Positions 29,961-54,269 of a stretch of DNA of 64,000 bases are shown in pieces. The stretch is from a virus (lineage: Duplodnaviria > Caudoviricetes): the IMG/VR virus record IMGVR_UViG_3300027756_000009, positions 47-64,046 of that record. The stretch is one strand, 5' to 3'. Made by a program: the position numbers and the translations under genes. The notes under the pieces were generated by a model. The model did not search any database, had not been told where the DNA came from, and saw only the letters and a list, made by a program, of their open reading frames with translations. Numbering within the stretch: the first letter of the stretch is position 1; each line of letters starts with the position of its first letter.

Positions 29961-30269
29961 ATGGACACTGAAGCCTTGGTTGCTCACGCACGAGCAAGAT
30001 TTGATCACGCAGCCGCTCGACGGGTGCTAAAAGAAAAGTACGAAGCACGTATGGTATTTGCTCACGCCGGAGGAATGTGGCGAGCAGGACCAGACCTTTT
30101 GACCACACTGTTGGCCTGCGCACAAGACAAGGATGTGGTGATATTGGACTTGTACGAAACTCCAGTACAAATCACTGTGACTGAATTGTTTGCCCTGGCA
30201 CATGAACGCTGGCAAGAGCAAATGAACGCATGGAAAGTAGAATGGGACCAGCTAAGCCAACGTCGTTGA
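29961..30269 (+). CDS. hypothetical protein
   Basis: 102-aa ORF after promoter; stop overlaps TTG start of next gene. Confidence 0.6.
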   Translation: MDTEALVAHARARFDHAAARRVLKEKYEARMVFAHAGGMWRAGPDLLTTLLACAQDKDVVILDLYETPVQITVTELFALAHERWQEQMNAWKVEWDQLSQRR

Positions 30270-31060
30270 CTCAAGGTGTTATAATCTTTGCATTCAACAA
30301 TGAATCTACGAATTACATTGCCATAGCAGCATGGAGTGCTCGGAACATTCGCAGGCACCTGAACTTGCCTGTGGCCGTGGTCACAGACGATCCTGCAGCC
30401 GCTGCACAGTACAAATTTGAACATATCATTGTCACAGCACCAGACACTGGTGGAACCAGACACTTTGCGGACTACGGTACCACAGTGACCTGGCACAATG
30501 CTGGACGCATCAATGCGTACGAACTGTCACCGTTTGATCAAACCATAGTGTTGGATGCTGACTATGTGGTAGCCGGCAATAAGTTACTAGACATGCTGAA
30601 AATACCGCAACAATTTGCAGCCTTTCGGGATGCATTTGATCCCAGCAATATGACTATGATTGACACATTTGGTGAGTATCGAATGCCCATGTGGTGGGCC
30701 ACTGTGATGATGTTCCGTCGTGGCACAGTGAGTCAATATATATTTGATTCAATGCAAATGATACGCAACAACTGGCAACACTACCGGGACTTGTACGGCA
30801 TTCATCAAAGCAACTATCGCAATGACTATGCCCTGAGCATGGCCCTTGGCCTGGTAGCCGGTGCTGAACAATCAGTTCATCAAATATATTGGCCCATGCT
30901 CAATGTCATGCCAGATCATGGGCTGACTTGTGTTGAACAAGATCATTATGAAGTCACGTACACCAACTCTAAAGGTCATATCAAAACTTTGAGTTGGGCT
31001 GGACTAGATTTTCATGCCATGTGTAAACGGCACCTGGAGGTGATAGTTGCAGCCCATTGA
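30266..31060 (+). CDS. GT-A-type glycosyltransferase-like protein
   Basis: Likely TTG start at 30266 (TTGA coupling); GVIIFA.N....Y...A...A..I, YELSPFDQTIVLDADY (DxD). Confidence 0.55.
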   Translation: MTQGVIIFAFNNESTNYIAIAAWSARNIRRHLNLPVAVVTDDPAAAAQYKFEHIIVTAPDTGGTRHFADYGTTVTWHNAGRINAYELSPFDQTIVLDADYVVAGNKLLDMLKIPQQFAAFRDAFDPSNMTMIDTFGEYRMPMWWATVMMFRRGTVSQYIFDSMQMIRNNWQHYRDLYGIHQSNYRNDYALSMALGLVAGAEQSVHQIYWPMLNVMPDHGLTCVEQDHYEVTYTNSKGHIKTLSWAGLDFHAMCKRHLEVIVAAH

Positions 31061-31814
31061 TGAACAAGGTTACTTAATTGTTGCTGTCAACAGCGACACA
31101 GTTGACTATCTTGACTGTGCCAGAACCTTGGCCAAGACCATACGCTACTGGGATCCGTCAGCACGTATCTGCCTGGTCACAGACAGCCCCTACACTGATC
31201 CCTTGTACGATCACCACAGACAACTTGTGCCGCAGGCCAATCCCTATGCCAACGATGCACAACTGTTTAAACTCACACCATTTCGTGAAACCATCAAACT
31301 GGAAGCAGACATGTGGATTGTGAGTCCTATTGCTCATTGGTGGGATCAGTTTAGACATCGTGATGTTGTGATATCAACCGGCTGTAGAGACTGGCAGGGT
31401 CGTGTGAGCACAGCAAGAAACTACAGACGAGTGTTTGATATGAACCACTTGCCAGACGTGTACAACGCGGTGACCTACTGGCGGCGTAGCGAAACCGCTC
31501 GGGAGTTCTTTGGCTGGGTAGGCAACATATTTTCCGACTGGGCAGAGTTTAAAAAACTCATAAAATTTCCGGATGAAACACCGTCGACTGACCTGGTGTA
31601 TGCCATAGCAGCTCAAATCATGGGACCCGAGCGTGTGACCATGCCATTCAGCACATACCCCAAGATTGTGCATATGAAACGACATATTGCAGGTACTGCC
31701 ACTGAACGCTGGCCCGAAGAACTGGTATGGGAATATCAGGATCTGCGACTGCGCATACAAACCGTGGCACAGACAGGTGCGTTTCATTACAATGCTAAAG
31801 ATTGGCGAGCATGA
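31047..31814 (+). CDS. GT-A-type glycosyltransferase-like paralog
   Basis: GYLIVA.N....Y...A..LA.TI, LTPFRETIKLEADM (ExD variant); clearly similar to upstream gene. Confidence 0.5.
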   Translation: MQPIDEQGYLIVAVNSDTVDYLDCARTLAKTIRYWDPSARICLVTDSPYTDPLYDHHRQLVPQANPYANDAQLFKLTPFRETIKLEADMWIVSPIAHWWDQFRHRDVVISTGCRDWQGRVSTARNYRRVFDMNHLPDVYNAVTYWRRSETAREFFGWVGNIFSDWAEFKKLIKFPDETPSTDLVYAIAAQIMGPERVTMPFSTYPKIVHMKRHIAGTATERWPEELVWEYQDLRLRIQTVAQTGAFHYNAKDWRA

Positions 31815-32146
31815 CACCTGAAGAATTTTGGTCCATATTGCACAATACACCAGAACCCCAGCCAGTGTTTTATCGCTTGTATCATGATGATCAAGGACAC
31901 CCGCTATTCTACAGCATGGCAGACGAACCTGGTACATACATTGAGATCAGCCAAGAACAATACCATACCAATGCCTCCAATGTGCGTGTGCGCGACGGCC
32001 GATTGGTAGAGGTAACATGGTTGACCACAACAAAATTGGTCCCTGGCAACTGTGGCACACCTTGTCATCCTAACAATGTCGCTGTAATCGTTGCTGAGGA
32101 TCAACCCCATATTCGCTGGAGTAAAAAAACATATGAATCAAATTGA
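31811..32146 (+). CDS. hypothetical protein
   Basis: ATGA-coupled start at 31811 (MTPEEFW...YRLYHDDQG.PLFYS). Confidence 0.55.
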   Translation: MTPEEFWSILHNTPEPQPVFYRLYHDDQGHPLFYSMADEPGTYIEISQEQYHTNASNVRVRDGRLVEVTWLTTTKLVPGNCGTPCHPNNVAVIVAEDQPHIRWSKKTYESN

Positions 32147-33059
32147 CATTGCAGATCTAGACTGTGTGTATCTCAGTTATGACGAACCTGAAAAAGAAGA
32201 GTTCTGGGTGCGTATCAAAAACATGGTGCCCTGGGCTGTTAGAGTGGACGGCGTCAAAGGGTCAGACGCTGCACACAAAGCCGCTGCTGCTGCCAGCACC
32301 ACCGAGCGTTTTATCCTGATCGACGGCGATAACATTCCCGATGCTAGTTTCTTCAATCAAACACTGACATTTAGCACACCAGACTGGACGCAGGCAGTGT
32401 TTCGTTGGCGTGCCCGCAATCACATCAACGGACTCATGTACGGCAATGGTGGCCTGAGTTCATGGACACGAGAGTTTGTGTTCAACATGCGCACACACGA
32501 AGCCACCGACGGGCGTACAGAAACCGAAGTGGAATTTTGTTTTGACCCCATGTACTGGCCCATGTACGATTGTTACTCAACCACATATCCCAATGGGTCG
32601 GCATTTCAAGCCTGGCGTGCCGGCTTCCGTGAAGGTGTAAAGATGTGCCTGAACAAAGGCGCACGACCCACAGTAGAACAATTCCAAGTGCAAGTACACC
32701 AACGCAACTTGGATCACCTGACCATATGGCACAACATTGGTGCTGACGTCAACAACGGCCACTGGGCCATGGCCGGCGCCAGACAAGGCACTTATATGAC
32801 CATGCTCACAAACTGGGATCATCGGCTGGTACAAGACTTTGATGCCCTGGCTGAACTTTGGAACACAGTCAAAGATTCAGACCCCAGACTGCTGGGCGGG
32901 CGTGTGTCCGAAGAGTTACATGGGCAATTGAACCTGCCCATGGCCATATTCGAAGCGGAACAGAGTCAATTTTTCAAACAGCACTATCGGTCAAACTGGT
33001 CAAATCGTGGTATCATGGTGCGAGAGATTGATGTGATCCGCCAACAAGAAGGTTGGTAA
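32133..33059 (+). CDS. GT-A-type glycosyltransferase-like protein
   Basis: DCVYLSYDEP, RVDGVKG.DAAHKAAA, F.LIDGDN (DxD), NGL.YGNGG, AWRAGFREG.K; ATG at 32133. Confidence 0.6.
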   Translation: MNQIDIADLDCVYLSYDEPEKEEFWVRIKNMVPWAVRVDGVKGSDAAHKAAAAASTTERFILIDGDNIPDASFFNQTLTFSTPDWTQAVFRWRARNHINGLMYGNGGLSSWTREFVFNMRTHEATDGRTETEVEFCFDPMYWPMYDCYSTTYPNGSAFQAWRAGFREGVKMCLNKGARPTVEQFQVQVHQRNLDHLTIWHNIGADVNNGHWAMAGARQGTYMTMLTNWDHRLVQDFDALAELWNTVKDSDPRLLGGRVSEELHGQLNLPMAIFEAEQSQFFKQHYRSNWSNRGIMVREIDVIRQQEGW

Positions 33060-33994
33060 TGTATATTTTAGGGTGTACAAGTGATCGCATATGGAATATT
33101 ACAGCATTAATTCAATATCTTATGCAGCATCAACACAAACAAATTATCATTGACATTCAGCCAGAAGCTATATGTTTGCATAATCTTGGATTGTATAAAA
33201 TATTGGATTGTTTTGAGTTTGAATCAGTACATATAAAAACGTGGAACCCATTAGAAACTCATACTCAATATACCATTGTTCACAAAGGTAAAGACTTTTG
33301 GTTTGATCACCAAGCTTCTATAACTGATCTACAACGTGAATACACCGGCGAAAAAACTTTTTTATGTTTGTATCATAGACCCACTGCAGGGAGATTGGCA
33401 TTGGCAGGATATTTACAGCAATACCATGCTGAATCAAGTCTTATACATTTTAGTGCCAGTGTGACTGATAATAACCTTGTGCAATTTGAGTTTGATAAAT
33501 TATTATCATGGAACTTGCTCAGTGTAGAATCAGCAAGTAAATTGTTACCCAAGTTGCCTATCTTATTGTCACCGCAAGATCAATACACAAGCACTCAGGG
33601 GTATTTTTACAATGATCCATTGACTGAGTTGTACCGTGACATTTTGGTTGATGTAGTAGTAGAAAGTCATGTGATTGGCAACACGTTTTTTCCTACAGAA
33701 AAAACAGTGAGACCCATGCTGTTAGGAAAACCGTTTTTGGCTTTTGCCAGTGTAAACTATTTGGCTTATCTTAGACAAATGGGATTCAGAACCTTTGCTG
33801 ATTTTTGGTCTGAAGATTATGATGGCTACGAAGGCGGAGAAAGATTGTTAAGAATATTAGCAGTAATAGATGAAATATCTGCCATGACGCTTGGCCAGAG
33901 AGAAACAATGTTTTGGGACATGCAATACACTCTGCAACATAATCGTCAGATACTATCACAACAATCTTGGAACAATACCATTGCAAAAATATGA
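33059..33994 (+). CDS. TEK-motif protein 1 (GT-B/GT10-like C-terminal domain)
   Basis: DVVVES...FPTEKT.RP.LLGKPF......YL..GF.TF..FWSEDYD; TAATG coupling; visibly AT-richer than neighbours. Confidence 0.5.
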   Translation: MYILGCTSDRIWNITALIQYLMQHQHKQIIIDIQPEAICLHNLGLYKILDCFEFESVHIKTWNPLETHTQYTIVHKGKDFWFDHQASITDLQREYTGEKTFLCLYHRPTAGRLALAGYLQQYHAESSLIHFSASVTDNNLVQFEFDKLLSWNLLSVESASKLLPKLPILLSPQDQYTSTQGYFYNDPLTELYRDILVDVVVESHVIGNTFFPTEKTVRPMLLGKPFLAFASVNYLAYLRQMGFRTFADFWSEDYDGYEGGERLLRILAVIDEISAMTLGQRETMFWDMQYTLQHNRQILSQQSWNNTIAKI

Positions 33995-35388
33995 ACAAAG
34001 GTGACGAGTCAGTAGACAACAAGAGTAAATTTCTCAGCTCTGCTGAGCAAATGAAACAGCAACTGGGCCCTGCACTTTGCTTGGCCAAATGGAAACAGGT
34101 TAGCTTGCATTTGACCACGGGCATGAACAACTCATGCTATCATCCACCACTACATGCCATCAATCCGGACGAAATCAAGATAGATGTTTCGGCATTACAC
34201 AACACAAATTATAAAAAACAGCAACGCCGGATGATGCTGGCAGGGGAGAAACCTACAGAATGCCAATACTGCTGGAATATGGAAAATGAAGGCAAACTTA
34301 GTGATCGTCACTATCGATCAGGTGAGCCCTGGGCCGCAGTGGATTTTGAATCAATAAAGAACAGCACAGGAGAAGAAGATGTCGTTCCCAGTTATGTTGA
34401 AGTTAATTTTAATCACGCTTGCAATCTGCGGTGTAGTTATTGCAGCCCTCAGTTTAGCAGTTCATGGGCAGATGAAGTCGCTAGACATGGAGCATATCCT
34501 ACCCTGGTGCCTCATAATGCTCCTGAGCATTTTGCTGGCAGTCGCCGTGCTATTCCCGTTCGAGAATCAAACCCTTATGTTGAGGCCTTCTGGCAATGGT
34601 GGCCTGAACTGTATCCACACCTAGAACATTTCCGCATGACTGGTGGTGAGCCACTCATGGATAAAAATACCTATCGGGTGTTTGATTATGTGTTGGCCAA
34701 CCCCAGTCCCCGACTGCATTTGAATGTGACCAGCAACTTTTCAGTAGATGAAAAATCCTGGCAAAAGTACCTGGCATATGTAAAACAAATATGCGACGGG
34801 CGCATTGAACACTTTATGCAGTATGTGAGCCTGGATGGCTGGGGTGAACAAGCAGAGTACATGCGTGACGGTCTAGACTTTGATCTGCTGTGGGATCGAG
34901 TAAATCAATTTCTTACACAAGTGCCCAACTACTCAAGTCTCACATTCATCATTACCATGAACAATCTCAGTGTGACCAGTTTGGACAAATTGTTTGCCGG
35001 CATACTGGGCCTGCGCAAGGTGTATAGCCATACATATCAACGTGTGTGGTTCGACACCCCTGTGCTGCGTGAACCTGCCTGGCAGAGCCTACAAATCTTG
35101 CCTGAGAGTTATGCAGAAAAACTGGAATGGTTGTGGGCCTGGATGGTGCGTCAAATTGAAACAGAAGAGGCACCGTTCAAGGGATTCAAAGACTATGAAC
35201 TGCACAGACTGGACCGTGACATTGCCTGGATGAGAGCAGCGCAGTTGACCGATCACTCTCGAGCCCGAGCAGATTTTTACCGTTTCTTTAGCGAGCATGA
35301 TCGAAGACGTGGCACAAACTTTTTGAAGACATTCCCTGAGATGCGAGCCTGGTGGGAGGAGTGCGCATATCATGCTCGGCAAGCATAA
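33991..35388 (+). CDS. radical SAM protein 1 with N-terminal SPASM/twitch-like Cys cluster
   Basis: CNLRCSYC, TGGEPL; N-terminal CLAKW..SCYHP..CQYCW; ATGA-coupled start 33991. Confidence 0.85.
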   Translation: MNKGDESVDNKSKFLSSAEQMKQQLGPALCLAKWKQVSLHLTTGMNNSCYHPPLHAINPDEIKIDVSALHNTNYKKQQRRMMLAGEKPTECQYCWNMENEGKLSDRHYRSGEPWAAVDFESIKNSTGEEDVVPSYVEVNFNHACNLRCSYCSPQFSSSWADEVARHGAYPTLVPHNAPEHFAGSRRAIPVRESNPYVEAFWQWWPELYPHLEHFRMTGGEPLMDKNTYRVFDYVLANPSPRLHLNVTSNFSVDEKSWQKYLAYVKQICDGRIEHFMQYVSLDGWGEQAEYMRDGLDFDLLWDRVNQFLTQVPNYSSLTFIITMNNLSVTSLDKLFAGILGLRKVYSHTYQRVWFDTPVLREPAWQSLQILPESYAEKLEWLWAWMVRQIETEEAPFKGFKDYELHRLDRDIAWMRAAQLTDHSRARADFYRFFSEHDRRRGTNFLKTFPEMRAWWEECAYHARQA

Positions 35389-36475
35389 AATCATTGTGGA
35401 TGAGTGGGCAGAAGTATGGGACCTGCTCAAGCCCTATGCAGATGAGAGCTTTTGGCAATGGCCTGCAGAACTAGATCCTGAAGTGGTATACATAGTAGGT
35501 AGAGTTGTGTTAAAAGAAAACTGGCAGGCCATAACTGACTGGGCCACACAGCATCCTGGACATGTTGTGTTTTCCAATCCTGCCGAAGGCAGTGAAACAA
35601 TACTATTACAACTGCGTAGACTGCTAATAGCAGACTATGTACGTGATGGCCGTATCGGGCTACTGACATCTGGTAACCTAGAACCAGGATGGAACTATTG
35701 CCGAACAGACAGTTACTTTTCCAACATTGTGGAGTATTTGGAAAATCTTGATGCTGCTGGCCACAATGTACAAGGCCGGGACAAGCCCTATGATTTCCTA
35801 TTTTTAAATGGCCGTCTGCGTCCACACCGCAAGTATTTGATAGATGCATTTAGAGGCCGTGACTTGTTGGATCGTGCGCTATGGACCAATCTTGGTGATC
35901 GTGTGGAGATGACCTGGACCAGTCGATTACACACTCAACTGGACGAACCCATTAGATTGCTGCCTGCACAGTACGAAATTGCCCGTGCAGTGCCTAACAT
36001 GGACACAGTGCCCGAGGGATTTGTCAAACATCATCTGTTTGGTCATACCTGGGGTGATGCCATTGTAAACCCATTGGCCTATGTAGACACTTGTTTCAGT
36101 GTGGTAACAGAAACCATATTTGACTACCCGCACACCTTTCGCACAGAAAAGATCTGGAAGCCAATGATCATGTGTCATCCATTTGTGGCAGCTGCCAATG
36201 CAGGTTACTACAGAGATTTACACGCAGCAGGATTCCGCACATTTGGGCACCTGATTGATGAATCATTTGATTCAATAGATGACCCCGCAGATCGTGCCAA
36301 TAGAATAGTTGACGTTGTAGCAGATATATGTTACAATAGTGCTTCCAGTTTCTTAAAGTCAGCCGAAGACATTTGTAAATACAATTACCAACATCTTCGT
36401 GAGCACAATGCTCGTGAACGTGCAGAACTTCCTGACCGATTAACCCAATACATCAATGAACGATTTAGAATTTAA
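35372..36475 (+). CDS. TEK-motif protein 2
   Basis: FLFLNGR.RPHR, FSVVTET...F.TEKIWKP....HPF...GF.TF..LIDESFD. Confidence 0.5.
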   Translation: MLGKHKIIVDEWAEVWDLLKPYADESFWQWPAELDPEVVYIVGRVVLKENWQAITDWATQHPGHVVFSNPAEGSETILLQLRRLLIADYVRDGRIGLLTSGNLEPGWNYCRTDSYFSNIVEYLENLDAAGHNVQGRDKPYDFLFLNGRLRPHRKYLIDAFRGRDLLDRALWTNLGDRVEMTWTSRLHTQLDEPIRLLPAQYEIARAVPNMDTVPEGFVKHHLFGHTWGDAIVNPLAYVDTCFSVVTETIFDYPHTFRTEKIWKPMIMCHPFVAAANAGYYRDLHAAGFRTFGHLIDESFDSIDDPADRANRIVDVVADICYNSASSFLKSAEDICKYNYQHLREHNARERAELPDRLTQYINERFRI

Positions 36476-37808
36476 ACAGCAAGTGTTGGACCCTGTGTCC
36501 TCAAGTTTTTGTGCAGCGAAATGGTACAATGCTACCATTTGGTTAGGAAGTGGGCAGACCACAAGTTGCCATCACCCGCCAGCTCATTTGGTGGACCGTG
36601 AAAAAGTTCAACTCAACTCTAGGCTGCTGCACAATACCGATCAAAAGAAGGCGGACCGTCGCAAGATGTTGTCTGGCGAACGTCCCTCAGGTTGTGAGTA
36701 CTGCTGGAAGATCGAAGACATGCACACCGATGCTGTGAGCGATCGTGTGTACAAAAGTAAAATTTATCCCATAGAGGCCCTGAATGAAGCTGTTAAAACT
36801 CCCATTGAACATGATGTCAATCTTAGAACGCTGGAAATCAGTTTCGATCGCACTTGTCAATTTGCTTGTTCTTATTGCAATCCTGCTTTTAGTTCCACTT
36901 GGGTCAATGATATCCGGAAAAATGGTGCTTATGTGGGACTGGTTAGCGATGGCAGGAACCATTTTACTCACACTCATGATAGTGCTCAACTTTATAAATT
37001 CGGTGAAGCTAATCCGTACGTAGAAGCCTTCTTTGAATGGTGGGAACGAGACCTACATCGAACCCTCCAAGAACTCCGAATAACCGGTGGTGAACCCTTG
37101 ATGTCAGGCTATACCTGGAAACTAATAGAGTGGTTCAAGACCAATCAAGGACGCAGTACCACACGACTGGCCATCAATTCAAATCTTGGCATTGACCTGG
37201 ACAAGATGAAAGAATTTGCTGTGTCAGTTGCCTCATTGCCCAAGGTGGATCTGTATACCTCTATGGAAGCAACATTCACACAGGCCGAATATATTAGAGA
37301 TGGCCTCGACTACGATCAATGGTTCAACAATGTGTTGTTTTTGTTGGAAGGCCGGTTTGTCAGTGCCGTGCATGTGATGTGTACCATCAATGCCTTGTGC
37401 TTGGACAGTCTGGTGAGCCACCTTGACATGATGTTGACATTGAAACAACGATATGGCCGTGATCAACTGAACTTTACATTGAACATTCTACGTTTCCCCA
37501 GTTTCCAAAGTGCATTGGTGCTGCCATACAATCTACGTAATGATTATAGATTGCAGTTGGAATCTTGGTTGTTCCGCAATCGTAACAATCCTTGTCTGCA
37601 CGAACACGAAATCAATCATGTACAACGCTTGATTGATTATCTGGATGTGGTCAAAACCCCGCACTCAGAAGCATTTGAAATGCCCAAGTTGTTGAATGAC
37701 TTTAAACAGTTTTACATACAGTATGATCAACGACGAGGTAAAGACTTTGCTCAGGCATTTCCCAAATTAAAAGAATGGTATGACTCGATACAAATACAAC
37801 AGCACTGA
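36456..37808 (+). CDS. radical SAM protein 2
   Basis: CQFACSYC, TGGEPL; N-terminal CAAKW..SCHHP..CEYCW; close paralog of rSAM 1. Confidence 0.85.
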   Translation: MNDLEFKQQVLDPVSSSFCAAKWYNATIWLGSGQTTSCHHPPAHLVDREKVQLNSRLLHNTDQKKADRRKMLSGERPSGCEYCWKIEDMHTDAVSDRVYKSKIYPIEALNEAVKTPIEHDVNLRTLEISFDRTCQFACSYCNPAFSSTWVNDIRKNGAYVGLVSDGRNHFTHTHDSAQLYKFGEANPYVEAFFEWWERDLHRTLQELRITGGEPLMSGYTWKLIEWFKTNQGRSTTRLAINSNLGIDLDKMKEFAVSVASLPKVDLYTSMEATFTQAEYIRDGLDYDQWFNNVLFLLEGRFVSAVHVMCTINALCLDSLVSHLDMMLTLKQRYGRDQLNFTLNILRFPSFQSALVLPYNLRNDYRLQLESWLFRNRNNPCLHEHEINHVQRLIDYLDVVKTPHSEAFEMPKLLNDFKQFYIQYDQRRGKDFAQAFPKLKEWYDSIQIQQH

Positions 37809-42539: not shown

Positions 42540-42637
42540 ATTGGATACGCAGAATTTGGGATAGAATCACGTTAGAAATACGTTATCGTAAAAAATTAAA
42601 AGAACTTCGCAAACGAGATCCTTTTATCTACAAATGA
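42536..42637 (+). CDS. 33-aa basic peptide upstream of carbamoyltransferase
   Basis: MNWIRRIWDRITLEIRYRKKLKELRKRDPFIYK*; AGGAG SD, ATGA overlaps at both ends, TATAAATA at 42480. Confidence 0.7.
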   Translation: MNWIRRIWDRITLEIRYRKKLKELRKRDPFIYK

Positions 42638-45574: not shown

Positions 45575-45592
45575 TTTCATGCTTATAAAGGT

Positions 45593-46228: not shown

Positions 46229-47256
46229 GTTTCTAATCCGCCGCGTCGGCGTATGTCTTGTGTACAGCATGAGATGCCGCCATCCCAGAAATAGCTGTGT
46301 CGCAGTTCACTGATGATAGGTTCTATCCGATGCCGGCGACAATAGTCAAATACTTCTCGGTTGTATGCTGAAAAGATCACATGCGACTCATCCAGCACTA
46401 AACAGTTGACATCAAACACAGTTTCGGCCACAAAACCAATCCATTTGGTCAAGTAGGTGTTCACAAAGTCTGTGAACTCTGGTGTGGGAGTTTGTCCTTG
46501 TACATACCATGCGCCCGGCGATTGTTCGTATTTGAACTTGCCAACTTCCATAGCAGCCCAGATCGAACTATCCCAGATTTTGCAAACGTCCCAGCCAGGG
46601 AAGTCTTTGGCCAAATCCAAGTTGACATCATGTTTGCTTGACAACAACACACCAGGCTTGAGTATAGCAAACACAGCATCACCGTGTCCGTCTGTCACAG
46701 CCTCGTGTACTCTATATTCTGGTCCCAACACATTGTCCACTATCCAGCGTGTTTGATCTGGCCGCAAAAAGTCCGAGTTGTCAAAAAACACATCACGACC
46801 CACACGCACAATGCATGACGCTGATGCTTGATTGAGAATACAATTTTCATCCCAGCCTGTTGGCCCATGCGGATTGATCACTGTGCCACCAGCTTTTTCA
46901 TATTCTACACACAGTGTATCGAGTTCTTGCACAGCCAGCACACGCAACAGTTTGTTGCCCAGTGTGATCTGCCAGTCTCGCGGTGTGAGCGGCGGCAGCG
47001 GCGCACCATTGCCTTTCATTTGATCACGTTGAAAATCATGCTTGTCAGGCAGGTCAGGTCTACGTACTCGAGCACCATAAGTTTCAATGGTCTTTTGCAA
47101 ATTGGTCAAATCTTCTTCGGTCTCAGCAAGAATTTGTTGCAGTTGATTGCGCACCTGCGCATTTTCAATAAAGTCAAAATAGTCTGGCGTGTATGCACGG
47201 CCCACAATGACTTCTTCAAGTGGTTGCCAGCTGGTGTAAGAGTTAATGGGATTCAT
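46219..47256 (-). CDS. amidinotransferase (glycine/inosamine-phosphate amidinotransferase family)
   Basis: NSY..W.PLEEVIVG, PRD, GHGD, F.VN, WDGG.SCCT.D..R: Asp/His/Cys catalytic pattern. Confidence 0.8.
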   Translation of the reverse strand: MNPINSYTSWQPLEEVIVGRAYTPDYFDFIENAQVRNQLQQILAETEEDLTNLQKTIETYGARVRRPDLPDKHDFQRDQMKGNGAPLPPLTPRDWQITLGNKLLRVLAVQELDTLCVEYEKAGGTVINPHGPTGWDENCILNQASASCIVRVGRDVFFDNSDFLRPDQTRWIVDNVLGPEYRVHEAVTDGHGDAVFAILKPGVLLSSKHDVNLDLAKDFPGWDVCKIWDSSIWAAMEVGKFKYEQSPGAWYVQGQTPTPEFTDFVNTYLTKWIGFVAETVFDVNCLVLDESHVIFSAYNREVFDYCRRHRIEPIISELRHSYFWDGGISCCTQDIRRRGGLETYL

Positions 47257-48424
47257 TGATTTCCTTGATTAGGGTATTTAAACGTTCAGTCTTTGACGAC
47301 ACAAATAACTGTTGATTGTGTTCTATGTCAGATCGACACTGTTCGAACAAGGCCGGCAAATTTTGTCGAGCATCATATATGGCCTTTGTGAGCATGATCC
47401 AACGCTGAGTGTGATTGTGTTCGAGATCGTACTGATTGTCCAATATGCCATCAAACACCCGATAACCAAGATCACGCAGAGCCTGTAGACTCCCAGCACC
47501 ACCGGCTATGAAAAACATTTGTCCATGTTTGATGGGTTTGAATGTTTTTTCTGTAACAAAACACCCACCTGACTGATCCACATCAAATTGACTTTCCAAC
47601 ACAATGTTGCAATAACTGTTGACATGATACTTCTCAATCAATCGACTGTGATCGTTTGATTGCTCGAAGTTCAATTCGTCGCTGATGTATGGTGCGCCTT
47701 CTAGGAATTTCTTGCGCTCATATCTCAATCGAGAAATTGCATCTACTTCGATGGGGCAATCATCATCCTCGCCAGACGCAGTCTCGCAATAACTCCAGTA
47801 TGAATTGTCCAACAATCCACTCTGCCACAAGTCGGCCATGGCAGTGGCACGCCACCATTTGTGTATTCTACTCAAACAGGTAAAATCACGTTCTCTTGGT
47901 TGATCATGTGCAGGCAATGCTGTGACCTCAAGATTGCGCTGGTAGTACCATAACTCAAAATCATGAAAGGTCACAAATCCTGGCAATCGATCAGCTGTTG
48001 AATTGGAACTGACAAACACATAGCAATTGGCAGGCATGCTATGAGCCTGACACAATGCATCCAGCCTATTTTTAATACGTTGTGGATTATCACCTTCATG
48101 ATAATAAAACAACAGTCGAAGTTGTTTTTGCTTTAGTTTTTCACCAACTTCGGTGGGCAACAATGCAATATAATTAATATCAAAATCAAAGAATCCCAGA
48201 CAGATGGGGTAGTAAGTGTTGTTAGGCAATTGATCTTCAATTGAAAATATATTAATAGGCACTGAATGTTCTGCACAGTATTCTTGCAGTCGCAATGGTG
48301 TGGTATAGGGCCAGTGTTGGCCAAACTCGCGCCAGCCCGGGGTATAGGGCCAGGCCTCATGACAAGTCAGCGCCGGGTATATTTTGCCTTTGACAGTTTT
48401 GTCAGCGACTAAATTCAATGTCAT
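47243..48424 (-). CDS. TEK-motif protein 3
   Basis: FTCLSR, NIVLES...FVTEKTFKPI..GQ.F..AG..GSL..L..LGY..F....D..YD. Confidence 0.5.
   Translation of the reverse strand: MTLNLVADKTVKGKIYPALTCHEAWPYTPGWREFGQHWPYTTPLRLQEYCAEHSVPINIFSIEDQLPNNTYYPICLGFFDFDINYIALLPTEVGEKLKQKQLRLLFYYHEGDNPQRIKNRLDALCQAHSMPANCYVFVSSNSTADRLPGFVTFHDFELWYYQRNLEVTALPAHDQPRERDFTCLSRIHKWWRATAMADLWQSGLLDNSYWSYCETASGEDDDCPIEVDAISRLRYERKKFLEGAPYISDELNFEQSNDHSRLIEKYHVNSYCNIVLESQFDVDQSGGCFVTEKTFKPIKHGQMFFIAGGAGSLQALRDLGYRVFDGILDNQYDLEHNHTQRWIMLTKAIYDARQNLPALFEQCRSDIEHNQQLFVSSKTERLNTLIKEINESH
47275..47280 (-). promoter_or_regulatory. TAAATA upstream of amidinotransferase
   Basis: Minus strand TTTAAATA followed by AAGGA SD and ATG 47256. 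Confidence 0.45.
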
Positions 48425-49514
48425 TCAACATGTCCTGTAGTTCTTGCCATAACACAGACTCAAAGCCGCCACCGTAAAAATGATCCCAATTGTGTTTGAT
48501 TACTTCTTGTGCTTGATCAAACAAATCTTGCTTGGCCTCTGTGGGCAATTCATCTAAGCTACGCAGCAGACTGGCAATGCGCTCGATGCGTACATCATCT
48601 TCGGCTTGATCATAACTTTCATCCCATATGCCTTCAAACGTTCGGAAGCCATAACTGCGCAGGTATTTCAAACTGCCCTGAGTTCCCACAATCACAAACG
48701 GCATGCCCAGAGCAATTGGTTTGAATGTCTTTTCAGTCAAATGATGTCTACGTCCTGTGGCCACAGTCTCAGTAACCAAGTATAACAAACTTTCAGCAGA
48801 TTCATCAAACAAACTGAGCCAACAACTGTGCATGGGATGATCTGCTTCTCCTGCAAAGTTAATGGGCAATGACTGTTGCGCAAATACAGATTCAATGTCC
48901 GGATACTTTTGATTCAACGATTTGACAGCTTCTAGTATGCTGATATTTTCCGCAGGACACACAGCTGGACAGCTGATGTGATTGTCCAGCATGTTGTTTT
49001 TGAATATATGGTACAACATTTCCAATCTATGCTTGCGTTCACCGGCTATGATGCGATTGGGTGCTATGAATGTTCGGGTAATTGTTCGTTGAGCAGGCGG
49101 AACTATCAAAAACGTTTGATTGTAGCCGCGATACCAGTCCAGTGACGCCCAGCCATGAAAAAAATAATACAGAGGAGTCCAATGGTATTGAGCACAAACT
49201 TGATCCACCGAGTCTGAATCTTTTTCACTGGTCACTAGATAGCCTGGATCGGATTTGGGAAAATTCCAGTGTATGTCTGGATTTCTCCCACGACGAATTT
49301 CCTCAAAGGTAGGCATGTGTATGTTCAAATGAATAGGCTCTTGGTCAAAAAAGAATATATAATTGTGTTCGCAGATGTCATCTATACCTTGGTTCACCAC
49401 ACTGTCGGCATCACTTCTACCAAATGGATCACAATAATAAACTCTCATTCCCGGCCGATGTTGTCGCACCCAGGGCCAAAAAGTATGGTGGTAAATTTCA
49501 TCTATTCTAATCAT
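48402..49514 (-). CDS. TEK-motif protein 4
   Basis: F...NR, YLVTET...LTEKTFKPI..GMPF...G..GSL..L.SYGF.TF...WDESYD. Confidence 0.5.
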   Translation of the reverse strand: MIRIDEIYHHTFWPWVRQHRPGMRVYYCDPFGRSDADSVVNQGIDDICEHNYIFFFDQEPIHLNIHMPTFEEIRRGRNPDIHWNFPKSDPGYLVTSEKDSDSVDQVCAQYHWTPLYYFFHGWASLDWYRGYNQTFLIVPPAQRTITRTFIAPNRIIAGERKHRLEMLYHIFKNNMLDNHISCPAVCPAENISILEAVKSLNQKYPDIESVFAQQSLPINFAGEADHPMHSCWLSLFDESAESLLYLVTETVATGRRHHLTEKTFKPIALGMPFVIVGTQGSLKYLRSYGFRTFEGIWDESYDQAEDDVRIERIASLLRSLDELPTEAKQDLFDQAQEVIKHNWDHFYGGGFESVLWQELQDMLNDIEFSR

Positions 49515-52500
49515 GTTTGACGTATTTTATTCAGGAACAAAACCAGGAGTGGTTGCACACGAGCGAGCAGCTGACAGCATCGAACATGCACAGAAGTTGA
49601 GTCGCACAAGGTATTTCTGGTGGATACACTACTTAGCGGACTATAGTGACTTTGATTTTCTTTGGGAGCCTGTGCCGTGGCAGGCTGATCAACGTCATGC
49701 CTGGTTGGATCAATATCAACTGGATGCTGGAGTTTATCTTATACCCAAGGATGGATATACAGAAACAAATTACCACACAGATGATCAAGTTCACAGACTG
49801 CCCAATGTTGATTTTTGGCATATTCCCGAATGGATTGATCCTGCCAGTATAAATCTCAGATGGGCACCTAACCCCACTGATCCTGCTTACATATATGAAT
49901 TCCCGGTAGAGTGGGATTGGGACCGTGTGGGCGGTCCGGAGTATAGAATTCCTGGCGCAACTGAACGCAAGTACATGGACGCATTTGTTGTCCGCACACA
50001 GTCCAATCGGCAGGACTGGAAAGTGTATGATACAGTAGACCCTGCGGATCCTGTGTTCCGCTGGCACCCAAATCCGTTTGATCCGCCAATGATCTATGTG
50101 TTTGGCAATCAGCATTGGCCTGCTGAAATTCGTGCCAGTGTGGAATATCATGTGCCTGGTGCTGTTGTAAAAAAATATATGGACACCATTCGCACTGTGC
50201 GATTGCCCGATTCAAGCCGATTCACTTGTTTGTATCCTTGTGAGTTTGATTGGAGTTGGGAACCCGATCCGGGCGATCCTCCTTATATCTATGTGTGGGG
50301 TAACCAGTGGTGGAGTGCAGAAAAGATGCCCACAGTGGAGTATCATGTACCGGGCGCAACAGAACGCAAGTACATGGATCAACCAGCACGTATCAAACCA
50401 GCTTACGAAAACTGGGTTGTTCCTGATACTGTGGATCGAAACAGTATAGATTTTAGTTGGCACCCAGATCCCCACGATGCTCCGTATATCTACGAGTTCG
50501 CCACACAATGGCAGCCCAATGGTGGCGCATTATACACTGTGCCCGGCGCAACCGAACGCAAGTATGTAGAAATACAACATCGCAGACTACCCAACAAACA
50601 GTCATTTAAAAAACTACAAGCACTACAGGGCTTTGACTATTCATGGCATCCAGATTCTACAGAACCACCTTATAACTATGTGTTTGGCAATCAGCATTGG
50701 CCCGGCACAGAAATGGCCACTGTTGTTTACCAAATGTCAGATGCCACACAAGACAAGTTTGTTGACTCGCACGTTGCTACGCTAGAAAATTGTTTAGACA
50801 ATTGGACAGTCGAAGAGGAAATTGATCGAGCTGCCTGGGACTGGTCCTGGGTGCCTAATCCTAAAGATCCGCCTTATATCTATGTGTGGGGCAATCAGTG
50901 GAATCCGCCTGAGTTCAAAGCCAGTGTCAAATACGTTGTTCCAGGCGCAACAGAAGTCAAGTACATGGATCGTCGCACAACAAGGCTTCCGCAACCCCAA
51001 CTGTTTGGTCATAATTTAGCAGTGAGCAAATTTGATTACTCGTGGGAACCAAATCCATTTGATCCACCGATGATGTACGTGTTTGGTAATCAGTGGAACT
51101 CGGCTGTGTTGGAACCCACTGTGGTATACAATGCCGGCGGCACTGAAATCAAGTATGTTGATGATATTGTTGCTACTCTAGCACAAGATATCACTGCCTG
51201 GGAATTGTTAGACGACATCCGACAGTTTGACTATTCCTGGAGGCCCAACCCTACTGATCCACCTTACATCTACGTGTTCGGCAATCAGTGGCTCACACCG
51301 GAACAGCGTCCAGCACTGAGATACTGTGTGCCAGGTGCCACTGAAATCAAGTACATGGATCATCCACGTGCTTGTCGCAGTGGAGATCCGGCACGTTTTG
51401 TACAGCACTATCCTGCAGACTTTGATTGGTCGTGGGAACCCGATCCTGGGTCACCTCCATACAACTATGTGTTTGGCAATCAGTACTATTCGGCAGAAGT
51501 TATGCCCACAGTAGAATATCACATGCCAGGTGCTACAGAACACAAATACATGGATATTCCTGCACAGTTGTTGCCGCGCCACGACAACCACTGGCACACC
51601 GTCATAGACTCGGAATGGGACTATACCTGGCAACCCGAACCTGGCAGCCCGCCCTACATCTATGTGTTTGGTAACCAATGGTGGCCAGCAGAAAAAATGC
51701 CCACAGTAGAATATCACATGCCCGGTGCAACTGACAGAAAATACATGCCAGGTCCTGTGGCCAAGTTATTGACAGACATGACCAACTGGCATATTCCAAA
51801 ACATATCGATCTAACCGATATGGATTTTTCGTGGGTCCCAGATCCGGGCGAACCAGATTATATCTATCAGTTTGCCACACAACACCAAAAGACCGGTGGT
51901 CCACAGTATCGTATGCCCGGTGCCACTGAGTTCAAGTATGTGGATATGATGCGAGCCGAAGTCAAGCGAGAAGCTGCACCTGTATTTGAAATTGATCACC
52001 TGGATGGCAATGCTGGCTGCATAGAAGGAACGGTTCGAAAGGTGCGTTACTTTGACAACTACAGAGACACCTTGATACGCTTGGCCAAGAGCCTTGTAGG
52101 CGAGTACGAACACGTATGGGTGTGTAGCAGTATCTGTGACTACACTGACTTTGACTTCTCGTGGCACCCGGAAACTTGGCAAAGCACAATGTTGCATGTA
52201 TTTGCATCAGACCGGGAAAAGTTTGGCGATACGTTCTACATGCATGTGCCCACATTTGCTGAACGAGCAGAGAAGAAACAGTTATTGGAATGGTACAGTG
52301 TGAACTATGTGACTCGACGGTCGGTACCACGACGTCCCATGCCTGTGATTCAACATGATGATGACGACCAAATAAATGCAGTAAAAACAACACAGTGGGC
52401 AGGCCCACTTGCTACATTTACCAACCATGACTACATACCTGGAGATCTAGTCACTGTGCCATTATGGCGTGAACAGACCAAAACCATTGTGCCTGTCAGC

Positions 52501-53301
52501 AGCGGTGCAGGCACAGTTGTGGTGCCACGTGTGGCTGTGCCTTACATAAAGACACAGTTGTATGACTATTCCTACATTGACCGTTCACAACGAATTTTAA
52601 AAGACGCTCCGCTGGACATTGTGTTTGTTTCAAACGGGGAGCCAATGGCCGATCGGCATTATGATCACTTGAGTCACCAGGTTAAAAAATTACCAAATCG
52701 ACTGTATCGTGTGGATCGAATAAATGGTCGAGTACAATCTGAACAAGCAGGTGCTGCTGCCTCAAACACAGCCTGGTATTTTCGTGTGCCGGCAAAATTA
52801 TCAGTTGATGAACGGTTTGATTGGAGTTGGCAGCCAGATCGCATGCAACAGGCCAAACATTATATTTTCCATGCACACAATCCTATCAATGGTTTACAAT
52901 ACGGGCACATGGCCATGATTGCCTACAATCGCAACTTGGTGTTGCAAACAGCTGGTCAAACTTTGGATTTTGCCACCGAGCAGTTGCACCAGGTGATTCC
53001 TGTACTTTCTGGTACCGCAGAATATACCCAATCGCCTTGGACAGCCTGGCGTACTGCATTTCGTGAAGTGATCAAGTTAAGAGCCAGTCTACCCGATGTA
53101 GAAAGCGAACATCGTATGCATCAGTGGTTGATACAAAATCACGATAACGATCAAGTGAAGTGGAGTCATATAGGTGCAGAAGATGCGGTGGAATACTATG
53201 ACTCAGTAGCAGGAGATTTTGCGGAACTTAAAAAGAGTTACGAGTGGTCGTGGCTGGCCGCTTATGCGTTTATGAAACGCAATCTAGTAGCCAGTGATTA
53301 A
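49513..53301 (+). CDS. 1262-aa protein: 11 Trp/Pro-rich repeats plus C-terminal degenerate GT-A-like domain
   Basis: C-terminal DIVFVSNGEP, RV..INGR, N..NGL.YG, AWRTAFRE..KL parallels 32133-33059 but the DxD is replaced (RVPAKL). Confidence 0.75.
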   Translation: MFDVFYSGTKPGVVAHERAADSIEHAQKLSRTRYFWWIHYLADYSDFDFLWEPVPWQADQRHAWLDQYQLDAGVYLIPKDGYTETNYHTDDQVHRLPNVDFWHIPEWIDPASINLRWAPNPTDPAYIYEFPVEWDWDRVGGPEYRIPGATERKYMDAFVVRTQSNRQDWKVYDTVDPADPVFRWHPNPFDPPMIYVFGNQHWPAEIRASVEYHVPGAVVKKYMDTIRTVRLPDSSRFTCLYPCEFDWSWEPDPGDPPYIYVWGNQWWSAEKMPTVEYHVPGATERKYMDQPARIKPAYENWVVPDTVDRNSIDFSWHPDPHDAPYIYEFATQWQPNGGALYTVPGATERKYVEIQHRRLPNKQSFKKLQALQGFDYSWHPDSTEPPYNYVFGNQHWPGTEMATVVYQMSDATQDKFVDSHVATLENCLDNWTVEEEIDRAAWDWSWVPNPKDPPYIYVWGNQWNPPEFKASVKYVVPGATEVKYMDRRTTRLPQPQLFGHNLAVSKFDYSWEPNPFDPPMMYVFGNQWNSAVLEPTVVYNAGGTEIKYVDDIVATLAQDITAWELLDDIRQFDYSWRPNPTDPPYIYVFGNQWLTPEQRPALRYCVPGATEIKYMDHPRACRSGDPARFVQHYPADFDWSWEPDPGSPPYNYVFGNQYYSAEVMPTVEYHMPGATEHKYMDIPAQLLPRHDNHWHTVIDSEWDYTWQPEPGSPPYIYVFGNQWWPAEKMPTVEYHMPGATDRKYMPGPVAKLLTDMTNWHIPKHIDLTDMDFSWVPDPGEPDYIYQFATQHQKTGGPQYRMPGATEFKYVDMMRAEVKREAAPVFEIDHLDGNAGCIEGTVRKVRYFDNYRDTLIRLAKSLVGEYEHVWVCSSICDYTDFDFSWHPETWQSTMLHVFASDREKFGDTFYMHVPTFAERAEKKQLLEWYSVNYVTRRSVPRRPMPVIQHDDDDQINAVKTTQWAGPLATFTNHDYIPGDLVTVPLWREQTKTIVPVSSGAGTVVVPRVAVPYIKTQLYDYSYIDRSQRILKDAPLDIVFVSNGEPMADRHYDHLSHQVKKLPNRLYRVDRINGRVQSEQAGAAASNTAWYFRVPAKLSVDERFDWSWQPDRMQQAKHYIFHAHNPINGLQYGHMAMIAYNRNLVLQTAGQTLDFATEQLHQVIPVLSGTAEYTQSPWTAWRTAFREVIKLRASLPDVESEHRMHQWLIQNHDNDQVKWSHIGAEDAVEYYDSVAGDFAELKKSYEWSWLAAYAFMKRNLVASD
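49800..51945 (+). repeat. 11 tandem ~65-aa protein repeats (FDWSW.PDP.DPPYIYVFGNQWW...PTVEY.VPGATE.KYMD)
   Basis: Counted from the translation; a 26-bp identical stretch is shared at 51502-51527 and 51697-51722. Confidence 0.9.
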
Positions 53302-54269
53302 ATTTTATTGTTCCAATAATCTGACTGGCTCAGCCACTCATAATACTTTTGGAATCCTTCTTCTACGTCTACTTTGGGATCAAAACTCAAGATGGTTCGA
53401 GCACGATCAATGTTTAGCGCACCTCGACTTGGAAAGTCTTCATCCCGGTCCTGCACTTCAATGGTGCCTCGACCCACAATTTTAACAATCATTTCAGCAG
53501 CTTCTAGTAAACTTACACTATGCGACTTGGTGAGGTTGAATGTCATATTACGACACATGATGCGTGTGGCTGCGGCAACGATACCATCAGCAGCATCATC
53601 CACATAGGTAAAGTCTAGTGTCTCCCCTGCCCCATTAACACAAAGAGTGCTGCCTCGCATGGCGGCAAGCATAAATTTTGCAATGACTCGATCCGCCACG
53701 TCAAGAGGTCCGTATACAGCACTAGGGCGAATAATAACATACTCAAAGCCACAGCGGCGAGCATAATCTTTAACAAGTTCTTCTCCACATAATTTTAAAA
53801 TACCATACTGTCCTTGCGGATGGCATGGATCATCCTCTAGCACATCATCTTCAAAGTTGCCGTACACCATGCTTGAACTGATGTACACAAATCGTTCAAT
53901 GCCGTGTTTTTTGGCACTCTCAAGCATGTTGACCAGACCCCTCATCATAACATCAGCAGCCTCAGTTGGCTTGTGATTCACGGCCTTTTGTCTAGGGTAG
54001 CTGGCGCAGTGAATAATGACCCGGGGCTTGTGGTTTTGTACTGCCAAATCGCAGGTCCAAAAATTTGAAATATCATAGCACTCGATCTTGGTGTCTGGCG
54101 CAATTTTTTTTTGTCGCTCGGCCATCAAGTAGTCAAGTTCCTCTTGAGGAATAAAATCAAAGTAAGTGGTTTTGGTATCTAATACAACCACCTGTTCATC
54201 ACGTGCTTGCAGTCGTTGTACTACATTATGCCCAATAAGGCCTAAGCCGCCTGTTACTAAAAATGTCAT
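53298..54269 (-). CDS. NAD-dependent (NDP-sugar) epimerase/dehydratase
   Basis: TGGLGLIG, SSSMVYG, YGILK (YxxxK), R...VYGP, DFTYVDD. Confidence 0.9.
   Translation of the reverse strand: MTFLVTGGLGLIGHNVVQRLQARDEQVVVLDTKTTYFDFIPQEELDYLMAERQKKIAPDTKIECYDISNFWTCDLAVQNHKPRVIIHCASYPRQKAVNHKPTEAADVMMRGLVNMLESAKKHGIERFVYISSSMVYGNFEDDVLEDDPCHPQGQYGILKLCGEELVKDYARRCGFEYVIIRPSAVYGPLDVADRVIAKFMLAAMRGSTLCVNGAGETLDFTYVDDAADGIVAAATRIMCRNMTFNLTKSHSVSLLEAAEMIVKIVGRGTIEVQDRDEDFPSRGALNIDRARTILSFDPKVDVEEGFQKYYEWLSQSDYWNNKI

Follow-up and report, generated by a model that had tools for sequence, protein, structure and literature searches.

A conserved operon of radical SAM enzymes, predicted glycosyltransferases and sugar-tailoring enzymes beside the fibre genes of uncultured jumbo phages

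The stretch of DNA analysed here, referred to as the window (64,000 nucleotides, positions 47 to 64,046 of the IMG/VR viral record IMGVR_UViG_3300027756_000009), carries at 29961-54269 an island of radical S-adenosylmethionine (SAM) enzymes, glycosyltransferase-like proteins and sugar-tailoring enzymes next to a group of fibre genes. The island is a conserved operon with its own promoter, found with the same content and order in about 130 related viral contigs. The reading that we tentatively prefer, which falls somewhat short of probable, is that this operon serves to assemble an oligosaccharide and to decorate it within the cytoplasm of infected cells, with a virion protein (fibre or capsid) as the preferred acceptor. 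This reading is built on the enzyme families present, their conservation and order, the solubility of the products and the boundary of the transcription unit.

The proposed pathway would take nucleoside diphosphate (NDP)-sugars of the host as building blocks. These would be re-shaped by a GalE-like short-chain dehydrogenase/reductase (SDR), joined in most relatives by a DegT aminotransferase, and further by five radical SAM paralogs with an N-terminal auxiliary Fe-S twitch domain. About eight soluble transferases (two GT8-like proteins, one or two GT-A-like proteins of the DxD type and four GT-B proteins with a GT10-like R...TEK motif, here called TEK1 to TEK4) would then join the sugars. Decoration would consist of carbamoyl groups, added by a NodU-type enzyme working with a 33-aa micro-protein that ends in DPFIYK, of amidino or guanidino groups and, in this window, of methyl and perhaps acyl groups supplied by a swappable cassette. 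The order of these steps, like the radical SAM substrates and the acceptor, is a proposal.

Gene content and conservation

The proteins of the window were compared with 59 loci fetched from IMG/VR through TEK4 and with 80 loci fetched through radical SAM 2. A preliminary description of the window, made from the sequence alone, had listed the genes of this block (Table 1) and had asked whether the set co-occurs in relatives and is exchanged as a hypervariable island. Almost all of its gene calls hold, and the same genes follow one another in the same order in both sets of loci, which is far beyond chance. The glycosyltransferases and sugar-tailoring enzymes indeed co-occur as a set, right after the fibre genes. 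The island is not hypervariable: between 28941 and 56281 almost all genes keep their order, at 50-90% amino acid identity, and variation is confined to a few cassette slots in a conserved backbone.

Some neighbours are never separated, namely the genes from 29961 through 32091, radical SAM 5 and the 342-aa gene (112 loci), and the amidinotransferase, TEK3 and TEK4. Insertions are found after the 322-aa GT-A-like gene (0-3.8 kb, the slot that holds TEK1), between radical SAM 2 and 3, 3 and 4 and, above all, 4 and 5, before the micro-protein, between TEK4 and the SDR, and between the carbamoyltransferase and the amidinotransferase. This last slot ranges from 0 to 4 kb and holds the methyltransferases and the SGNH-like gene of the window, which recur in 2-12 loci. 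Rigid pairs combined with defined slots are a pattern that would fit a conserved core glycan with variable decoration.

The association with fibre genes extends beyond the close relatives. In marine contigs at 30-60% identity, the fibre-like gene still goes together with the two GT8-like genes, the gene of the 322-aa protein and five radical SAM genes, and the cyanophage S-SSM5 has a carbamoyltransferase near a fibre gene, together with PhyH-type oxygenases. In pelagimyophages, GT8-type genes and radical SAM cassettes lie beside fibre genes (PMC7029224). The fibre-side regions of cyanophages and pelagimyophages are described as hypervariable, whereas the present backbone is conserved, and the cyanophage loci checked lack the DPFIYK peptide, the amidinotransferase block and the TEK family.

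None of the products of the block contains a hydrophobic stretch of the kind that spans a membrane, and the chemistry is therefore taken to be cytoplasmic. Three conserved proteins fall outside known families. The 102-aa product of the first gene has no Pfam or NCBIfam match, and the 114-aa protein has no family match. The 342-aa protein is modelled as a beta-barrel with a helical insert (AF2, pLDDT 85); it has no PDB sequence or Pfam match, no Foldseek match and no usable ESM Atlas match, its cyclophilin-like structural matches are marginal (VIA-align, Z about 8), and an hhalign comparison with the DUF6071 proteins of the Ralstonia jumbo phage RsoM2USA was negative.

Table 1. Features of the window in and around the island
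Feature	Position	Strand	Basis or remark
Giant open reading frame (ORF), 4842 aa	11602-26130	+	directly 3' of baseplate wedge gene
Intrinsic terminator, end of fibre/structural operon	29910-29929	+	8-bp stem, 5 GC pairs, T-run
Sigma-70-type promoter, TTTACT-17 nt-TACAAT	29927-29955	+	-10 ends 5 nt before ATG
First gene, 102 aa, no known family	29961-30269	+	present in 71/80 loci, median 65% identity
GT8-like GT-A candidate 1, VLDADY motif	30230-31060	+	present in 71/80 loci
GT8-like GT-A candidate 2, KLEADM motif	31047-31814	+	phrog_1903
Conserved 114-aa protein	31802-32146	+	present in 76/80 loci
GT-A-like 322-aa protein, IDGDN motif	32091-33059	+	median 76% identity in 76 loci
TEK1, predicted GT-B-type paralog in variable slot	33053-33994	+	paralogy
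Radical SAM 1 (N_Twi_rSAM, 'AKW...SCxH' subtype)	33967-35388	+	NF033640 1.5e-96
TEK2, predicted GT-B-type paralog	35372-36475	+	paralogy
Radical SAM 2 (subtype as radical SAM 1)	36456-37808	+	NF033640 1.1e-83
Radical SAM 3 ('PW...CC' subtype)	37780-39042	+	NF033640 3.9e-116
Radical SAM 4	39039-40244	+	NF033640 9.7e-101
Radical SAM 5	40241-41518	+	NF033640 2.2e-81
Conserved 342-aa protein	41511-42539	+	AF2 model
Basic 33-aa micro-protein ending ...RKRDPFIYK	42536-42637	+	ATGA overlaps both ends, between 342-aa gene and carbamoyltransferase
NodU/TobZ-type O-carbamoyltransferase	42634-44118	+	Carbam_trans_N 1.6e-35, Carbam_trans_C 1.1e-46
FkbM-family methyltransferase, accessory cassette	44115-44915	+	Pfam 1.3e-19
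Class I SAM methyltransferase, accessory cassette	44905-45534	+	Pfam 5e-22
Candidate SGNH/GDSL-type esterase or acyltransferase, accessory cassette	45593-46228	+	'ITGDSF' block I motif only
Amidinotransferase (AGAT/StrB1/HsvA/SxtG superfamily)	46219-47256	-	PDB matches 4e-17 to 3e-10
TEK3, predicted GT-B-type paralog	47243-48424	-	paralogy; never apart from its two neighbours
TEK4, predicted GT-B-fold glycosyltransferase family without Pfam model	48402-49514	-	AF2 model
1262-aa protein, repeats and C-terminal GT-A-like domain without DxD	49513-53301	+	repeat spacing, paralogy
Extended SDR, GalE-like (SSSMVYG, YGILK), on NDP-sugars	53298-54269	-	Pfam Epimerase 2e-43
ThyX	54590-55273	-	directly past island end
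HNH endonuclease (phrog_1314) and phrog_1297 ATPase	within 57382-63383	-	further past ThyX

A separate transcription unit

The island begins at the boundary that had been drawn for it, behind the best terminator-like site between 26 and 46 kb, which follows the stop codon of the gene 28941-29906. Hairpin and T-run are kept in 47 of 56 distinct relatives. Nearly all of these relatives (55 of 56) also have a -10-like (TATAAT-like) hexamer 5-7 nt ahead of the first gene's ATG, accompanied in 41 of 56 by a TT[TG]AC -35 element at 17 nt upstream, an arrangement which suggests that the operon start is leaderless or near-leaderless. The conservation of both elements therefore points to a separate, probably leaderless, transcription unit with a promoter of the host sigma type. 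The -35 element of T4 early promoters is GTTTAC; if the T4-type early rule holds here, the island may be expressed early.

A motif of the T4 late-promoter type, TATAAATA, is found at 27107-27114, about 25 nt before a fibre-like gene (27139-28923), and either this motif or CATAAATA/AATAAATA precedes the fibre-like gene in 18 of 36 distinct relatives, so that the lineage seems to use T4-type late promoters. The island is not part of this TATAAATA-driven fibre operon, from which the terminator and the sigma-70-type promoter set it apart. Its position beside the fibres is thus co-location rather than co-transcription. Another copy of TATAAATA, at 42480, was considered as a late promoter for the carbamoyltransferase and was rejected, being found in 2 of 77 relatives only and within coding sequence.

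Radical SAM enzymes

The five radical SAM enzymes, all of them already recognised in the preliminary description, belong to the family NF033640 (N_Twi_rSAM), which they match over the full model with 274-388 bits against a cut-off of 170. They are mutually 19-32% identical and fall into two subtypes. Invariant across the five paralogs are C32, C50, C93, C96, C140, C144 and C147, that is, four N-terminal cysteines and the CxxxCxxC motif, together with a GGEP motif. In radical SAM 3 a Pfam SPASM match (residues 32-97) lies ahead of the radical SAM core (135-278). Compared with the NF033640 family elsewhere, the distinctive feature of the island is a set of five anciently diverged paralogs of two subtypes in a fixed order.

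NF033640 is a catalogued family of which, to our knowledge, no member has been characterised, and the context of its members was used to approach their function. Outside the present lineage, large contigs classified as Bdellovibrionota or Bacteroidota carry arrays of two to nine N_Twi_rSAM genes, and the Vibrio phages K566/K567 carry four copies. The Pfam families most common beside the bacterial genes are further radical SAM enzymes, PhyH dioxygenases, GDSL proteins, carbamoyltransferases, GT7-type proteins and B12-radical SAM enzymes, with DegT found singly; the top neighbour families include no peptidase or transporter genes typical of ribosomally synthesised peptides that undergo post-translational modification (RiPPs). 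One Flavobacteriaceae contig has two N_Twi_rSAM genes amid a GT2 gene, two GT7-lectin fusions, a methyltransferase, a TEK-like gene, a UDP-glucose dehydrogenase and a carbamoyltransferase. Because this context is consistently carbohydrate-related and not RiPP-like, sugars or nucleotide-sugars are the presumed substrates. The next-best models for the radical SAM cores, MoaA and viperin, both acting on nucleotides, may be taken as a weak hint in the same direction. As a separate observation, a 271-kb contig of a Chitinophagales metagenome-assembled genome (MAG), seemingly a bacterial chromosome, holds nine N_Twi_rSAM-like genes within 21 kb.

Glycosyltransferase candidates

The four proteins carrying the TEK motif, noted before as a group, are true paralogs with a common C-terminal domain and the motif V.TE(S/T)...F.TEK..KP. 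A structural model of TEK4, built from a 42-sequence alignment of orthologs and paralogs in the fetched loci, is confident (pLDDT 90, pTM 0.90). All Foldseek matches at E <= 0.001, and all top VIA-align matches (Z 10-11), are GT-B glycosyltransferases. The best VIA-align match is the T4 alpha-glucosyltransferase AGT (Z 11.4, root-mean-square deviation 4.8, 277 aligned residues), followed by T4 BGT (11.2), a glycosyltransferase of the chlorovirus PBCV (10.3) and the alpha-1,3-fucosyltransferase of H. pylori (10.1). Further matches include many GT4-type, protein O-glycosyl and fucosyl transferases, among them the protein-glycosylating SdgB, GtfA-type, POGLUT and EarP enzymes and the enzymes of the PBCV capsid glycan. 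The model thus has the two Rossmann-like domains of this fold, and the TEK proteins are predicted GT-B glycosyltransferases; the concern that they might fold as something else is not borne out by it. No sub-family can be named, because the top structural matches are tied within about one Z unit.

TEK4 has the same GT-B fold as the GT10 alpha-1,3-fucosyltransferases (H. pylori FucT, FUT9, FUT11 and FUT13; Z 8.2-10.1). The invariant Arg (R162) and the Glu-Lys pair of the TEK motif (E260 and K261) presumably resemble the donor-binding Arg195, Glu249 and Lys250 of H. pylori FucT. Membership of CAZy GT10 was nevertheless rejected, as there is no match to Pfam Glyco_transf_10 or, by sequence, to the PDB, and the Z of 10.1 is tied with that of other GT-B families. 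Nor could the family be placed at the sequence level: neither Pfam, searched to E 5, nor the PDB, searched with one sequence and with two profiles (one of them the 42-sequence profile), gave a match. The family is large, with 14,292 clusters at 50% identity matching the profile (E <= 0.001), some of them two-domain proteins. Thirty diverse members contain no Pfam domain, and ten clusters that were looked up come from metagenomes only, and any names that they bear are 'hypothetical' or 'uncharacterized'. A tblastn search with TEK4 found no match in 50,697 phage isolate records. TEK1 is variable in its distribution, with full-length relatives, at about 33% identity, in only 24 loci.

Of the three genes previously called GT-A-like, all show the expected DxD-type motifs (DAD, EAD and DGD), but their family matches are sub-threshold only. 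The protein 30230-31060 matches a glycogenin profile at E 0.5 and is weakly paralogous to the next one, 31047-31814, which matches glycogenin-2 at E 0.028 and NleB at E 0.25. Their placement in CAZy GT8 is accordingly tentative, with DAD/EAD motifs and weak glycogenin/NleB matches (E 0.03-0.5) as its grounds, and DUF6071 proved unrelated to this GT8-like family. For the 322-aa protein there is a Pfam GT2_3 hint at E 0.13; a PDB profile search was empty, and the ESM Atlas returned viral hypothetical clusters only.

The 322-aa protein is also paralogous to residues 1019-1223 of the 1262-aa protein (blastp 1e-9), which agrees with the earlier call of a fusion between repeats and a glycosyltransferase-like domain. 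The remainder of this protein comprises about 11 repeats of roughly 65 aa (FDWSWxPxPxDPPYIYVFGNQ), and its relatives vary in length, down to 543 aa. The start codons of its gene and of TEK4, which are transcribed away from each other, overlap back-to-back in a CATG (49512-49515); each promoter therefore lies inside the coding sequence of the other gene, or the true starts are further in.

Tailoring enzymes and sugar supply

The carbamoyltransferase, the two methyltransferases and the SDR give plain Pfam matches, as expected from the preliminary description. The carbamoyltransferase has both the Kae1-like N-terminal and the YrdC-like C-terminal domain of its family; it matches NodU at 1.5e-36, with 126 bits against an equivalog cut-off of 1000, and related enzymes occur in 136 phage records. 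The accessory cassette is rarer, the FkbM methyltransferase recurring in no more than 5 of the 59 and 12 of the 80 loci and the class I methyltransferase in two or three. As for the SGNH-like protein, its GDS block is seen, but domain scans gave no family match.

The amidinotransferase has no Pfam or NCBIfam match. The earlier call is confirmed by structures that it matches over its full length, namely AGAT (4e-17), StrB1 (4.7e-11), HsvA and SxtG. Three aligned segments span the protein; the cysteine of its GGISC motif corresponds to Cys407 of AGAT and the histidine of GHGD to His303, while the aligned blocks do not include the Asp of the triad. At 85-89% identity it is the best-conserved enzyme of the block.

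The SDR scores below every NCBIfam equivalog cut-off. We take its motifs SSSMVYG and YGILK to be GalE-like rather than dehydratase-like. An assignment as NDP-sugar 4,6-dehydratase was rejected, since these motifs stand in place of TDE/STSE and the score is 120 bits against a dehydratase cut-off of 365. The window, from whose record 82% of the genome is missing, contains no aminotransferase. One or two DegT aminotransferases adjoin the SDR in all five near-complete relatives, which implies amino-sugar synthesis in those phages. The same five relatives contain no sugar nucleotidyltransferase, and NDP-sugars of the host must therefore be used.

The preliminary description had also likened the block to aminoglycoside and aminocyclitol tailoring. 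This likeness stands at the superfamily level: twitch radical SAM enzymes, NodU/TobZ-type carbamoyltransferases and amidinotransferases are common to the block and to aminoglycoside tailoring (BtrN, TobZ, StrB1), although the twitch domain of BtrN lies at the opposite end from that of the block's enzymes. It does not extend further, given the missing aminotransferase and the domain scans of the island, which turned up no sugar-phosphate cyclase or inositol-phosphate synthase, although no search was aimed at them. An aminocyclitol pathway as such was set aside for want of a cyclitol-forming enzyme in these scans.

A near-invariant micro-protein

The micro-protein is present in 113 fetched sources and is more conserved than any enzyme of the block. 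Its residues 14-33 (LEIRYRKKLKELRKRDPFIYK) are essentially invariant across 77 distinct DNA versions, while third codon positions are free and its arginine codons alternate between the CGN and AGR families, so that very strong selection acts on the protein. Its gene always abuts that of the carbamoyltransferase, even where an insertion parts it from the 342-aa gene. It was not found in the bacterial N_Twi_rSAM arrays or in Vibrio phage K566, nor did it turn up close to the carbamoyltransferases of phages C48C1 and S-SSM5, which are more distant. This distribution indicates that the micro-protein goes with one clade of carbamoyltransferases and not with the radical SAM genes. Pfam PF19451, the model of the DUF5989/SxtK small proteins, was searched against the window to E 10 and matched nothing there.

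A minimal version of the system exists in a cultured phage. In RsoM2USA, genes 199-203 share with the island a radical SAM 2 ortholog (52%), the carbamoyltransferase (45%) and the DPFIYK peptide, the last as an unannotated, divergent 36-codon ORF (...IRKQDPFIYK, about 125890-125997 of the record) in the gap between RsoM2USA_201 and _200. This phage has one radical SAM enzyme only, and three DUF6071 proteins surround the peptide and the radical SAM gene where the island has TEK and glycosyltransferase genes. The genes of the module are all annotated as hypothetical and are set among replication genes.

Target of the pathway and alternative readings

A virion protein is tentatively favoured as the target of glycosylation, because the linkage to fibre genes persists in marine contigs, cyanophages and pelagimyophages, the transferases are soluble, and chloroviruses and mycobacteriophages offer a precedent. 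In chlorovirus PBCV-1 and in mycobacteriophages, virions are glycosylated by soluble, virus-encoded glycosyltransferases and methyltransferases in the cytoplasm, enzymes of the kind found in the block, and the PBCV proteins NY2A GT and A075L are among the structural matches of TEK4. For the present block, attachment to virion proteins is a proposal. We know of no radical SAM, amidino or carbamoyl enzymes in either of them. For mycobacteriophages the precedent is Freeman et al. 2023, as cited in PMC12619734. A candidate O-glycan acceptor lies close by: seven near-perfect 15-bp repeats at 26974-27078 encode the (SSGGS)7 tail of a 260-aa protein (26301-27083, phrog_11259), a flexible, Ser-rich tail beside glycosylation genes.

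Several points weigh against this preference. The terminator cuts the operon off from the late fibre operon, and a sigma-70-type promoter is used; the GT-A assignments are weak; the amidinotransferase needs an amine, yet the window has no aminotransferase; with NF033640 uncharacterised, a sugar substrate follows from context only; the acceptor is a candidate by analogy; and the best structural matches of TEK4 are T4 DNA glucosyltransferases, though these are tied within about one Z unit with others.

The promoter, which suggests expression by the host polymerase and possibly early, would suit a remodelling of a host envelope glycan (O-chain of the lipopolysaccharide, capsule or exopolysaccharide) early in infection, in which soluble transferases act on lipid-linked intermediates of the host and the host flippase and ligase export the product. 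Its purpose would be a block to superinfection or keeping progeny off debris. We consider this reading unlikely. O-antigen transferases are often peripheral and without membrane segments, as here, and bacterial surface glycans are known to undergo NodU-type carbamoylation and O-methylation by FkbM enzymes. The GT8-rich regions of pelagimyophages have moreover been published as a modification of the host O-chain (PMC7029224). However, domain scans of the island turned up no initiating phosphoglycosyltransferase, flippase, polymerase or ligase family, there is no membrane protein in the 24 kb, and the backbone is 50-90% identical across a lineage that must meet varied hosts with varied surface glycans. 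It is quite unlikely that the product is instead soluble or anchored to a peptide, either as a mycofactocin-like glycosylated and radical-SAM-processed DPFIYK micro-protein or as an aminoglycoside-like small molecule with guanidino and carbamoyl groups. The micro-protein would be an attractive precursor, since nothing else in the block is as conserved, it ends in Tyr-Lys, is clearly selected at the protein level and turns up again in the distant RsoM2USA, along with a carbamoyltransferase and an ortholog of radical SAM 2. Amidinotransferases and carbamoyltransferases are hallmarks of natural-product pathways (StrB1, SxtG, TobZ), and there are weak matches of one radical SAM enzyme to MftC (E 7e-4) and of a methyltransferase to MftM (E 5e-4). 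A RiPP or mycofactocin-like system would call for a precursor peptide; a conserved peptide is present, yet it tracks the carbamoyltransferase and is missing where radical SAM arrays occur without one, from the bacterial arrays and from K566 with its four radical SAM genes; in addition, no PqqD-like recognition domain, peptidase, transporter or exporter was seen in the domain scans of the island, and the lack of cyclitol-forming enzymes described above speaks against the small molecule within the limits given there.

Hypermodification of the phage DNA with a decorated sugar, as a guard against host nucleases, is the reading suggested by the two T4 enzymes at the head of the TEK4 matches, and we regard it as very unlikely. 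The promoter type is compatible with early expression, the minus-strand part of the island abuts ThyX and other genes on the side of nucleotide metabolism, and the small module of RsoM2USA lies among ligase, clamp-loader-like and helicase genes. Nevertheless, the Z of the T4 enzymes exceeds that of GT-B enzymes directed at proteins or glycans by no more than the range of a tie, and no DNA-binding or base-flipping domain was detected. In five relatives that are 95-100% complete, searches with working controls found neither a ThyA-family hydroxymethylase (PF00303) nor a TGT/DpdA protein (PF01702), so the known entry points for attaching a sugar to a base are missing, and routes through 5-hydroxymethylpyrimidine or 7-deazaguanine DNA are unlikely. 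A search for Tet/JBP (PF12851) also gave no match in the relatives and was uninformative, being silent in every control genome as well.

Returning to the glycan itself, a more speculative and rather improbable version would have a radical-edited guanidino and carbamoyl glycan anchored on the DPFIYK micro-protein, as a viral mycofactocin-like glycopeptide, or on the phage DNA. Here radical editing would mean an epimerisation, a deoxygenation or the formation of C-C or C-N bonds, all independent of oxygen. If true, the product would represent a novel class of glycoconjugates encoded by viruses, and NF033640 and the TEK family would gain a first function.

Relation to known systems and significance

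Phage glycan clusters beside fibre genes, phage carbamoyltransferases and the family NF033640 are already on record. What is added here is the conserved backbone with its cassette slots, the terminator-promoter boundary, the predicted GT-B fold and the size of the TEK family, the DegT/SDR pairing in relatives, the missing entry enzymes for DNA modification and the minimal version in cultured RsoM2USA, which could serve for experiments. Phage glycan pathways are known in outline and almost none has a defined product, and the present one is conserved in hundreds of contigs of uncultured aquatic jumbo phages. A single operon unites an uncharacterised radical SAM family, a GT-B family without a Pfam model (more than 14,000 clusters), a rare phage amidinotransferase and a near-invariant micro-protein partner. 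Knowing what it makes would give several large 'hypothetical' families a function and show whether giant phages decorate virions, hosts or DNA with radical-edited sugars.

Lineage and genomic surroundings

The IMG/VR record of the window has 64,046 bases and is rated 18% complete. A megablast search of 10 kb against 50,697 isolate records found no close relative among phage isolates. The left part of the window encodes a baseplate hub, a baseplate wedge and the 4842-aa protein, which is probably a giant fibre or tail-associated protein. Cultured jumbo myophages, among them Sinorhizobium phage Phosso, Agrobacterium phage Atu_ph07, Salicola phage SCTP-2 and Cronobacter phage GAP32, have wedge proteins with only about 34% identity to that of the window, and relatives in IMG/VR reach 342-364 kb, two of them with terminal repeats. 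Judged from these distant homologues and large relatives, the window is a fragment of an uncultured aquatic jumbo myophage, a lake phage, with a genome of about 350 kb. Its lineage comprises at least 458 contigs in IMG/VR (relatives of radical SAM 2), and the IMG/VR contigs derive from freshwater samples. The 'Moraphage' lineage (PMC12619734) is a separate aquatic group of large phages with core glycosyltransferases, for which radical SAM genes go unmentioned there, and it is not equated with the present one.

The whole island, micro-protein included, is also found at 42-84% identity on a 183-kb contig of a Haliscomenobacter MAG (NZ_JBBAKG010000001.1). This is either a phage contig binned with its host, which would give a lead to a host among the Saprospiraceae, or an artefact of the binning. 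Several contigs of TMED and other MAGs likewise resemble mis-binned phage DNA.

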